Of a stretch of DNA of 60,088 nucleotides, positions 13,932 to 15,274 are shown piece after piece. Under the pieces are notes generated by a model that saw only the letters and a list, made by a program, of their open reading frames with translations, was not told the DNA's origin and ran no database searches. Source of the stretch: Candidatus Woesearchaeota archaeon. GTDB taxonomy: Archaea; Nanobdellota; Nanobdellia; Pacearchaeales; GW2011-AR1. The stretch's first letter is position 1. Every line of letters starts with the position of its first letter. Location of the stretch: the NCBI GenBank assembly GCA_964406515.1, contig CAYORV010000002.1:1-60088 (forward strand), written 5' to 3'. Position numbers and translations under genes: made by a program.

Positions 13932-13982
13932 ACTTTTTTATAGATAACAAACCTTAAAAACTCTTTTTTTCTGGTATTTTTG

Positions 13983-14346
13983 TAAGTCAGGTAGTTAACT
14001 TCGGGACTAGCTTTTGAATAAGCAAACTTCGTATATCGAAATTAGTTCTGAGGAAGGTCCGCCCACCAATGTAAGGAACCAAGGTTCCTTGACAGTCAAC
14101 CTCTTTTAAGGATGGTTCATGACTGATTAAAGTTGTCGTTGAAAAACGATTGTCGTGAGGCAAAGCTCTGGTAAAGAAACGCCACAGTTCCTGTTGAGCA
14201 ATGAACTCTTGGAGGAAGCTAAGAGACAGGAGATTTGATGAAACGAGCATCTCAACTGGTGCAAGGCTATATGCCGCATAGTGGAATGTTAACACGTTCT
14301 GTTCGCTTCGGCGAAGAACGACAGAAGGTGGCCTATTCCTGACTTA
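13983..14346 (+). ncRNA. rnpB: RNase P RNA (archaeal; ends approximate)
   Basis: CR-I/P4 5' strand gaggaaggtccgccc (consensus GAGGAAAGUCC) near 14050. CR-V/P4 3' strand acagaaggtggcctattcc (consensus ACAGAAnnnGGCUUA) near 14321. P1 pairs 5' taagtcagg (13983-13991) with 3' cctgactta (14338-14346). A UUCG-capped helix gttcgcttcggcgaac and a ggtaaagaaacgcc CR-II/III-like segment are also present. Confidence 0.75.
14071..14103 (+). repeat. hairpin-plus-tail motif, copy A (inside RNase P RNA)
   Basis: Sequence gtaaggaaccaaggttccttgac + agtcaacctc. It contains the 8-bp palindrome AAGGAACC/GGTTCCTT. Confidence 0.8.
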
Positions 14347-14348
14347 TG

Positions 14349-14384
14349 AGGGGAACCAATGGTTCCCCTTACAGTAACCTCTCC
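14349..14384 (+). repeat. hairpin-plus-tail motif, copy C (immediately 3' of RNase P RNA)
   Basis: Sequence aggggaaccaatggttcccct + tacagtaacctctcc. Same architecture as copy A, with a related tail ACAGT(C)AACCTC. Confidence 0.7.
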
Positions 14385-14406
14385 TTTGAGTTAGAGTCAA
14401 GCCTGA

Positions 14407-14594
14407 TTACACCTTCTCATGAAGGTGGCAACTCGTTGATTCAAAAGCTCTCATGAATAAGAATATTTGTGACTGTTGAATTAACTCGCTATTCCAAAAC
14501 TTACACCTTCTCATGAAGGTGGCAACTCGTTGATTCAAAAGCTCTCATGAATAGGAATATTTGTGATTGTTGAATCAACTCGCTATTCCTGACT
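14407..14594. repeat. tandem direct repeat, 2 x 94 bp (about 93% identical), each unit with the hairpin caccttc-tcat-gaaggtg
   Basis: Unit 1 is 14407-14500 and unit 2 is 14501-14594. They differ at 3 internal positions and in the last about 6 nt. Confidence 0.9.
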
Positions 14595-14990
14595 TACTTC
14601 TCTATTAAAAAATTTCCAAAGATCGTTTATGGTTTTGCACTCGCGAATTTGATTTAATCCTTGTATAGATAGTTTTTCTAAATAACCTCTGACATATTCT
14701 TCTGTATGGGGCGTTCCACAATCACTACAATCCCAGATTTTGCCTTCTGGCAAATCTCTATGATAAAACCATTTTCCCTGAGGGTTATCTATTTTGCATC
14801 CTCCTTCAAGATTATTTGGACTTCTGTCGTATTCTGGGCATACACACAAAAGACATATCATTTCATAATCGCTTGTATCATTATGGCATCTTGTTCCATT
14901 ATAACACGGGCAAGAATTCTCATCTGCTTTTTTTCTGTTTATTAATCTATTCTCATCTATTATCTTCTCTATTAATTCTACCTTGTTCAT
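14583..14990 (-). CDS. cysteine-rich small-domain (zf-like, COG2158/PF04071-type) protein
   Basis: Pattern CPCY..RCH....ICLLCVCPEYD....GGC........DCSDCGTPH matches the C.LFCYCPLY...CGG...DCS.C..PH signature. Confidence 0.65.
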   Translation of the reverse strand: MNKVELIEKIIDENRLINRKKADENSCPCYNGTRCHNDTSDYEMICLLCVCPEYDRSPNNLEGGCKIDNPQGKWFYHRDLPEGKIWDCSDCGTPHTEEYVRGYLEKLSIQGLNQIRECKTINDLWKFFNREVSQE

Positions 14991-15039
14991 AGATTCTTTT
15001 GCAAAAATGTGCTTAAAAGAATTTATAGCTTATACCAAC

Positions 15040-15049
15040 ATATTTAAAA
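15040..15049 (+). promoter_or_regulatory. TATA-like box upstream of the tRNA-Phe locus
   Basis: atatttaaaa lies about 26-30 nt upstream of the first (partial) GGGAATG copy at 15075. This is positional inference only. Confidence 0.3.
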
Positions 15050-15089
15050 GTTAAGAGGAGTATTTATTTTCAATGGGAATGTAGCTCAC

Positions 15090-15123
15090 GTAAGGAACCA
15101 AGGTTCCTTGACGTTCAACCTCC
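15090..15123 (+). repeat. hairpin-plus-tail motif, copy B (in tRNA-Phe 5' leader)
   Basis: Sequence gtaaggaaccaaggttccttgac + gttcaacctcc. The first 23 nt are identical to copy A in RNase P RNA. Confidence 0.8.
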
Positions 15124-15168
15124 TATATTAGTCCTCGCGGGGCGGATTCGCTACAACTCAAATCCTAT

Positions 15169-15240
15169 GGGAATGTAGCTCAGCGGGAGAGCACATGACT
15201 GAAGATCATGGTGTCCGGGGTTCGACTCCCCGCATTCCCA
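15169..15240 (+). tRNA. tRNA-Phe (anticodon GAA), no encoded CCA, no intron within the mature sequence
   Basis: Hand-folded cloverleaf: acceptor GGGAATG/CATTCCC, D arm GCTC-AGCGGGA-GAGC, anticodon arm CATGA-CTGAAGA-TCATG, variable GTGTC, T arm CGGGG-TTCGACT-CCCCG, discriminator A. Confidence 0.95.
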
Positions 15241-15274
15241 TAACTTTTATAAATAAGGTTTGTTTAATTTGATT

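Follow-up and report, generated by a model that had tools for sequence, protein, structure and literature searches.

Introduction

The closest described analogue of the repeat reported here is the group of Rickettsia palindromic elements (RPEs), short palindromic repeats that are found between genes and in frame in protein genes and that multiplied in lineage-specific bursts (PMC1779305). We analysed a 60,088-nt stretch of DNA (the window), contig C2 of a DPANN genome (G000) of 640 kb and roughly 80% completeness, in which three copies (A, B, and C) of a hairpin motif occur within the gene for RNase P RNA, in the leader of the nearby tRNA-Phe gene, and at the 3' end of the RNase P RNA, respectively. 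These copies very likely arose as three insertions of a single dispersed element of Pacearchaeota-like DPANN archaea that has two hairpins and no gene. No published description of the family was found in the literature searched, and the element is apparently an undescribed archaeal variant of the small palindromic selfish repeats.

Like the RPEs, the element is gene-less, short, and palindromic, resides in a reduced genome, occupies intergenic positions as well as an in-frame position in a coding sequence (topA), is found at many unrelated loci, and is present or absent between close relatives. An RPE insertion in an RNA gene was reportedly described by Ogata et al. in 2000. The element differs from the RPEs in being archaeal and in its size (56–62 nt, versus 100–150 bp for RPEs), in its strong association with tRNA genes and introns, tRNA +1 positions, and start codons, in following an orientation rule, and in being accompanied at some sites by 14–23-nt target duplications and an inverted copy of the target. 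No sequence relation between the two was seen.

In Thermoproteales, near-identical bulge-helix-bulge (BHB) introns are found in different tRNA genes and have been transposed, according to the summary of Fujishima et al. (2010) given in the review PMC4090602, which calls the mechanism of this transposition unknown and presumes that it operates at the DNA level. The present element likewise supplies near-identical intervening sequences to different tRNA genes, but it is also found in RNase P RNA, in leaders, at start codons, and in open reading frames (ORFs), on either strand, and mostly without a BHB. The PATEs of the IS200/IS605 family and the REP/RAYT systems resemble it in having hairpins near the ends, no terminal inverted repeats, little or no duplication at plain insertions, and hints of strand bias and single-strand folding; it differs from them in that no Y1 transposase was found in G000, G003, or G012, no conserved target tetranucleotide was found, and the long target duplications are foreign to PATEs. 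The element departs in at least one defining feature from each of three classes, namely classical MITEs (miniature transposable elements with inverted repeats), IS200/IS605-derived elements, and BHB introns.

Structure and distribution of the element

The pattern GGAACC-N(1–5)-GGTTCC occurs three times in the window, versus 0.01 occurrences expected, and none of 100 shuffled sequences reached three. An earlier, sequence-only reading of the window had located the motif at 14071–14103 (A), 15090–15123 (B), and 14349–14384 (C), with a 23-nt string common to A and B; the sequences are as claimed, and A and B share the string and 89% identity over 38 nt (repeat family D2). Independent contigs of several salt-lake metagenome runs match 13979–14436 and 14524–15198 without difference, and because they reproduce the stretch exactly, the arrangement of the three copies is not an assembly artefact.

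Fuzzy searches of G000 identified further copies before tRNA-Arg(TCT) and tRNA-Thr(TGT), in a tRNA intron on contig C27, twice in a long ORF on C17, and at the end of contig C16; copy A and the tRNA-Arg copy are identical at 35 of 35 positions. A wider search of the genome and related bins, as the sequence-only reading had proposed, was conducted with a covariance model (R1) built from nine copies. R1 gave 24 matches at about 18 loci in G000, where copies are found on at least 13 other contigs, and it matched in 31 of the 61 genomes examined from the same family or order, with 0–39 matches per genome and 1–12 within the genus. The genomes compared include four congeners of G000 (G001, G002, G003, and G004) and members of other genera, such as G012, G009, and G006.

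Alignment of about 50 copies with their downstream sequence defined a unit of 56–62 nt that comprises two hairpins. The first (H1) is the palindrome described in the sequence-only reading and combines a core of 8 bp with a one-base bulge and an outer stem of 3 bp that covaries. What that reading called the tail of the motif (AGUCAACCUC) belongs to a second hairpin (H2), in which it is the 5' strand and GGAUGGUUCAUGACU the 3' strand; the motif noted is the left half of the two-hairpin unit, and the right end of the unit is ...CTGAT. In copy A, H1 folds at about 14070–14094 and H2 at about 14094–14124, followed by the end CTGAT. The right-end motif occurs 13 times in G000, and a reversed-pattern control gave no occurrence. 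H1 pairing is 95.3% across 48 copies, and 7 of 10 pairs show double (compensatory) changes, a value reached by none of 500 shuffles, in an alignment fitted to the model, which favours structure. The ends of the unit, TGTAAGG... and ...CTGAT(T), have only a weak GAACC in common, and terminal inverted repeats of the MITE type are absent. A second subfamily forms head-to-tail tandem arrays.

The loop of H2 resembles an archaeal TATA box (TTTAAAAT, TTTAAGAT). In an orthologous intergenic copy (G000:C1:10333–10400; G002:C9:7993–8043), this loop lies ~26–31 nt before the ATG of the next gene, and the element might thus act as a movable promoter. Where antisense copies adjoin start codons, as described below, the complement of the tail is GGAGGT, and H1 lies between GGAGGT and the ATG.

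Copy A in the RNase P RNA

Copy A occupies the linker between helices P5 and P7 of the RNase P RNA (Table 1). In an alignment of 12 RNase P RNAs, this linker is 63 nt long in G000, versus about 8 nt in G001, G002, G004, and most other genera, and the distance from P5 to P9 is 87 nt in G000, versus 29–33 nt in G001, G002, G004, G005, G008, G010, and G011. The unit is identical at 58 of 59 positions to that in the tRNA-Asp intron of G003, a sister species, and, at 56 of 59 positions, to one found in a tRNA intron of G012, a member of another genus. Because the linker is short in three congeners and near-identical intron units are found elsewhere, helix A is a recent insertion in a permissive linker and not, as the sequence-only reading had it, an RNase P helix duplicated in the leader of one of the enzyme's own substrates. 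The placement of helix A in the S-domain region is likewise to be revised, since it lies in the P5–P7 linker and is not a native helix: as to the question of whether it is ancestral, the short linkers of G001, G002, and G004 give a negative answer, and no counterpart of helix A was found at the same site in the RNase P RNAs of close relatives. The RNase P RNA of G003 retains the tail and H2 and lacks H1.

No BHB was recognized at the borders of copies A, B, and C by eye on sequence and fold, no dedicated BHB program having been run, and copy A in particular shows no 4-bp helix flanked by two 3-nt bulges in this reading. Copy A would stay in the mature RNase P RNA as an extra arm. Its position is that of helix P5.1, which lies between P5 and P7 in the type B RNase P RNA of bacteria. 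In both cases, an extra helix is tolerated between P5 and P7, but P5.1 is ancestral and conserved in its lineage, whereas copy A is a recent dispersed repeat that is found only in G000 and partly in G003.

Unrelated inserts of about 15–55 nt are present at the same linker in G012, G009, and G006, and further RNase P RNA inserts were observed in P12 (G001) and P15 (G003 and G012), with ribozyme lengths ranging from 267 to 422 nt. Because of the copy A insertion, the P4/P5 strand of the G000 RNA is misplaced by cmscan, whose alignment skips the true 5' strand at 14050–14067 and uses a look-alike inside the insertion (window 14000–14135). This misplacement lowers the score to 100 bits in G000, compared with 120–137 bits in G001, G002, and G004, in which the insertion is absent.

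Copy B and the leaders of tRNA genes

The genes for tRNA-Phe, tRNA-Arg(TCT), and tRNA-Thr(TGT) show a common order of parts: a TATA-like box, a partial tRNA copy that extends to position 14 (...TGTAGCTCA), a full unit, a spacer, and the whole tRNA. The spacers of the three leaders are 17–20 nt long and contain an inverted copy of tRNA positions about 4–11. The target duplications measure 16, 14, and 16 nt at tRNA-Phe, tRNA-Arg, and tRNA-Thr, respectively, and the inverted target copies comprise 8 nt at tRNA-Arg and 7 of 8 nt at tRNA-Thr. In G023, tRNA-Thr has the same leader layout with a 14-nt duplication. In G003, G006, and G008, tRNA-Phe is located directly behind the TATA box without copy B, and the spacing from the TATA box to tRNA +1 in the insertion-free leaders of G008 and G003 equals that from the TATA box to the partial copy in G000.

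At tRNA-Phe, the unit would have landed between positions 14 and 15, in the D-loop, and the 16-nt duplication back to the tRNA start would have left a whole tRNA downstream, making the insertion harmless. Transcription would start at the partial tRNA copy, and RNase P would remove a leader of ~96 nt that contains the same element as the RNase P RNA itself. Pairing of the two tRNA 5' copies through a palindromic AGCU helix was also considered and was rejected because no flanking helices are present.

In G004 (L049), tRNA-Phe lies on the other strand, and next to it come the element and a 22-nt stretch that degenerately repeats the 3' end of this tRNA; the tRNA-Phe of G003 has an element directly at its 3' side. 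The tRNA-Phe gene has thus been struck independently in three congeners (G000, G004, and G003).

Copy C and the 3' end of the RNase P RNA

Copy C is a 62-nt unit inserted immediately 3' of the terminal base of the RNase P RNA. G004 contains the exact empty site, ...CTGACTTA/CACCTTCTCAT, in which the slash marks the position of the unit in G000; at most TTA is duplicated. Downstream of the gene lie 94-nt units, tandemly duplicated in G000 and single in G004, each a pseudo-copy of the final 23 nt of the RNase P RNA that is interrupted by a palindromic insert of 59–62 nt. The possibility that this insert constitutes a second repeat family was rejected, since the insert is unique in the genome.

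The sequence-only reading had also placed copies B and C each behind the left copy of a flanking direct repeat. Both repeats exist, with 16 nt at 15073/15167 for B and 14 nt at 14333/14583 for C (right copy, 14583–14596), but the 14-nt repeat belongs to an older nested duplication and not to copy C. Because G002, G009, and G010 carry other inserts there, bounded by 17–23-nt repeats of the RNase P 3' end, this end is a recurrent landing place.

Copies in tRNA introns, at gene starts, and in topA

The tRNA on contig C27 (L008:380–525 = G000:C27:3779–3924), which ARAGORN labels Ser(aga) with an odd intron, was identified by hand as tRNA-Asp(GUC), whose canonical intron (71 nt, at 37/38) includes the element. 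The BHB of this intron is perfect, with a central helix CUGU/AUAG, bulges CGU and AAC, and an inner helix GAGG/CCUC. Among the tRNA-Asp genes of family f1 (loci L103–L119), eight are intronless and eight have an intron; all eight introns hold an H1-like hairpin with the tail, and no element-free intron was seen among them. In G003, four R1 matches lie in tRNA introns (Leu, Ser, Gly, and Asp), all in the sense orientation. The first 5 nt of the tRNA-Asp intron of G003 (CGGAT) are the same as the start of the 3' exon.

Six copies adjoin tRNA +1 and nine adjoin a CAT with which an ORF of 122–563 aa starts on the opposite strand; in both groups, the copies are always antisense. In topA (L010:765–906 = G000:C17:7764–7905; gene on the minus strand), two antisense units are read in frame as 44 extra residues, an insert that is missing in 12 of 12 relatives searched. 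An imperfect target duplication of 22 nt and an inverted target copy of 11 nt, the latter perfect, flank one of these units. In total, 11 of the 18 loci are no more than 100 nt away from a gene for a tRNA or RNase P RNA, compared with 8.5% of non-ORF DNA (p = 3e-8), in a comparison in which weak matches beside tRNAs may be inflated because the 5' flank of R1 was trained partly on tRNA sequence. The element persists where little harm is done, namely in BHB tRNA introns, leaders, trailers, topA (in frame), and the P5–P7 linker of RNase P RNA.

Organization of the locus

The features of the locus are listed in Table 1. A small ORF for a cysteine-rich protein (14600–14990, minus strand) lies between the RNase P RNA and tRNA-Phe genes, and G002 seems to have a similar ORF; in G003, G006, and G008, tRNA-Phe directly follows RNase P RNA.

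Table 1. Features of the RNase P RNA–tRNA-Phe region of the window
Feature	Position	Strand	Evidence
RNase P RNA gene, archaeal type	13982–14347	+	Rfam RF00373, 100.4 bits
RNase P P4/P5 5' strand	14050–14067	+	Conserved CR-I/P4–P5 strand in alignment with 11 relatives
P5–P7 linker (J5/7) of RNase P RNA	14068–14130	+	Holds copy A
Copy A, full-length 59-nt element in the P5–P7 linker	14069–14127	+	R1 match, 57.8 bits
RNase P P7 5' strand	starts 14131	+	Alignment with 11 relatives
Copy C, full-length element, subfamily TGAGGGG...CCTGAT	14347–14409	+	R1 match, 56.9 bits
Two tandem 94-nt units, pseudo-copies of the RNase P 3' end (GAAGGTGGC...CTATTCC)	14407–14596	+	Families D1 and D6
TATA-like box of tRNA-Phe, ~24 nt 5' of the partial tRNA copy	15041–15049	+	Sequence reading; putative promoter
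Left copy of the 16-nt target duplication, tRNA-Phe positions -2 to 14	15073–15088	+	Family D5, 100% identity to 15167–15182
Copy B, full-length element, variant H2, end GGCGGATT	15089–15148	+	R1 match, 59.5 bits, and alignment
18-nt spacer with GCTACA (15150–15155), inverted tRNA positions 6–11	15149–15166	+	Sequence comparison
Intact tRNA-Phe(GAA), including the right copy of the duplication	15168–15241	+	RNA gene scans

Alternative explanations

The interpretation of A, B, and C as insertions of a mobile element is supported because the family is multi-copy, is patchy among relatives, and has empty sites in congeners at all three positions. Of the sequence-only suggestion that the motif is the conserved end of a small mobile element targeting structured-RNA genes, the mobile part is upheld by these observations and the targeting part by the proximity of loci to tRNA and RNase P genes, but insertion is not confined to structured-RNA genes, since copies also lie at start codons and, antisense and in frame, in topA. 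A chance or purely local duplication, or an assembly artefact, would fit the richness of the region in local repeats (the 94-nt tandem unit and the 14–16-nt direct repeats); given the excess of the pattern in the window, the copies on other contigs of G000 and in 30 other genomes, and the agreement of independent contigs, it can be practically dismissed. A functional signal common to RNase P RNA and its substrate, whether bound by an RNase P protein or by L7Ae or serving as a decoy that couples RNase P and tRNA-Phe levels, is consistent with the conservation of the hairpin structure through covariation, the near identity of units across genera, and the strong enrichment at tRNA and RNase P genes. 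However, helix A is missing in the RNase P RNAs of G001, G002, and G004 (three of the four congeners) and half-deleted in that of G003, copy B is missing from the tRNA-Phe leaders of relatives, and no element was found in 30 of 60 relatives searched. The same unit recurs in settings unrelated to one another, and its strand relative to the host gene varies: it is antisense in topA and at nine start codons, and it is also present in tandem arrays. These observations argue against both the shared binding site and the regulatory mimic proposed earlier. A K-turn, as required for an L7Ae site, was also looked for by inspection of the fold and rejected: H2 has a 3-nt UCA bulge followed by Watson–Crick UGACU/AGUCA pairing, with no tandem sheared G.A pairs. 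We therefore regard a functional signal as very improbable.

An RNA-level, intron-like parasite deserves somewhat more weight but is still improbable. In this scheme, tRNA splicing endonuclease would excise the unit at a BHB, RtcB would rejoin it or mis-ligate it to other RNA ends, and reverse transcription or RNA-templated repair would fix it in DNA; copy A would be spliced out of the RNase P RNA. Several features of the tRNA introns fit this scheme: the intron copies are all sense, they occupy seven apparently independent introns (Asp, Ser, Leu, two Gly, Tyr, and Glu), and the element is found in every intron-bearing tRNA-Asp gene of the family, the eight others being intronless. The junctions, moreover, fall at the ends of RNA molecules: at tRNA +1, at the start codons of mRNAs that probably lack a leader, at the 3' termini of both RNase P RNA and tRNA-Phe, and at 5' splice sites. 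Wobble pairs, too, favour the sense strand. Nevertheless, no BHB was seen by eye at A, B, or C, no reverse transcriptase match was obtained in G000 or G003, a sense intron RNA would not easily give rise to the antisense copies in topA (in frame) and at gene starts, and the tandem arrays do not fit.

Possible mode of movement

As for how the mobile element moves, plain insertions (A, C, and the arrays) have precise ends with at most 3 nt duplicated, whereas other insertions show a 14–23-nt duplication and an inverted target copy. The latter footprint looks like that of snap-back or template-switch repair and not like that of a fixed-length staggered cut. A defined unit may be copied as a folded single strand and inserted by a trans-acting factor at DNA that is transiently single-stranded or broken, and template-switching repair would sometimes add the duplication and the inverted copy. 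Provided that the element is mobile, such a single-strand DNA or template-switch route is the one we consider most plausible, at slightly less than an even chance. A HUH (Y1) transposase supplied in trans is unlikely, and an RNA-level route via splicing enzymes is a little less likely again, with the remainder left to other routes.

In the genomes with high copy numbers, none of six types of enzyme searched for (Y1_Tnp, TnpB, reverse transcriptase, Cas1, DDE_Tnp_1, and tyrosine integrase) tracks the element. No Y1 gene was found in G000, G003, G012, G016, or G054, which are 61–98% complete, despite the presence of 10–24 element copies; conversely, four Y1 matches were found in G019 with no element copy and eight in G035 with two. 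The only transposon-type genes found in G000 are a TnpB-like ORF (376 aa; L069, C34:1297–1500, on a 2.7-kb contig) and one DDE_Tnp_1 ORF (358 aa; C5:24078–24602); the single DDE_Tnp_1 ORF occurs only in G000 and G003 of five genomes checked. The right-end motif search revealed no long element bounded by both ends. A casposon-like origin of the 14–16-nt duplications was rejected because no Cas1 was found.

Several observations weigh against the interpretation of the copies as a mobile element, among them the partial training of R1 on tRNA sequence mentioned above. Y1_Tnp, reverse transcriptase, and Cas1 gave no match in G000 or G003, and Y1_Tnp is a poor guide to copy number, the element being found in 10 of 15 genomes with Y1_Tnp versus 20 of 45 without. 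A non-exhaustive search of the surroundings of the Y1_Tnp genes in G023 and G055 and of the TnpB contig in G000 detected no R1-like hairpin. The element shows no terminal inverted repeats, no target duplication of fixed length, and no clear target motif. Wobble pairs number 38 on the sense strand and 9 on the antisense strand, an excess that rests largely on one inherited pair and a model-fitted alignment, and minimum-free-energy folding gave no difference between the strands. The orientation follows the local GC skew on 12 of 13 G000 contigs and for 8 of 11 matches on the 401-kb contig G003:C1, but this bias is missing in other genera (12 of 25 single loci), and 3-kb windows are weak indicators of replication direction; a strand lock to replication is upheld in G000 and G003 only and was rejected as a general rule. 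Finally, the near identity of units across genera points to recent activity or transfer, or else to a strongly constrained sequence, and it could also mean selection on function.

Significance

The route by which introns arrive in tRNA genes remains open according to a 2026 preprint on Asgard tRNA genes. It is conceivable, although we hold this view only tentatively and consider it less probable than not holding, that insertion of the element is a visible birth route of archaeal BHB tRNA introns and of RNA expansion arms, in which target-duplicating, inverted-copy repair pre-forms the exon–intron helices. The same repair in an anticodon loop would yield a spliceable BHB intron; elsewhere, the same footprint would sequester a stray tRNA fragment or leave a new helix, as in RNase P RNA.

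In practical terms, insertion of the element misleads RNA annotation, as in the placement of the P4 strand by cmscan and the tRNA-Asp call by ARAGORN. More generally, a recently active and recognizable unit can be compared across sites with and without it, and these sites include introns, leaders, an essential ribozyme, and an essential protein; the origin of archaeal tRNA introns therefore becomes a testable question. The locus also provides a natural example of a catalytic RNA that gains a peripheral helix from selfish DNA, after which the RNase P ribozyme would have to remove the leader of a substrate in which this insert is also present.

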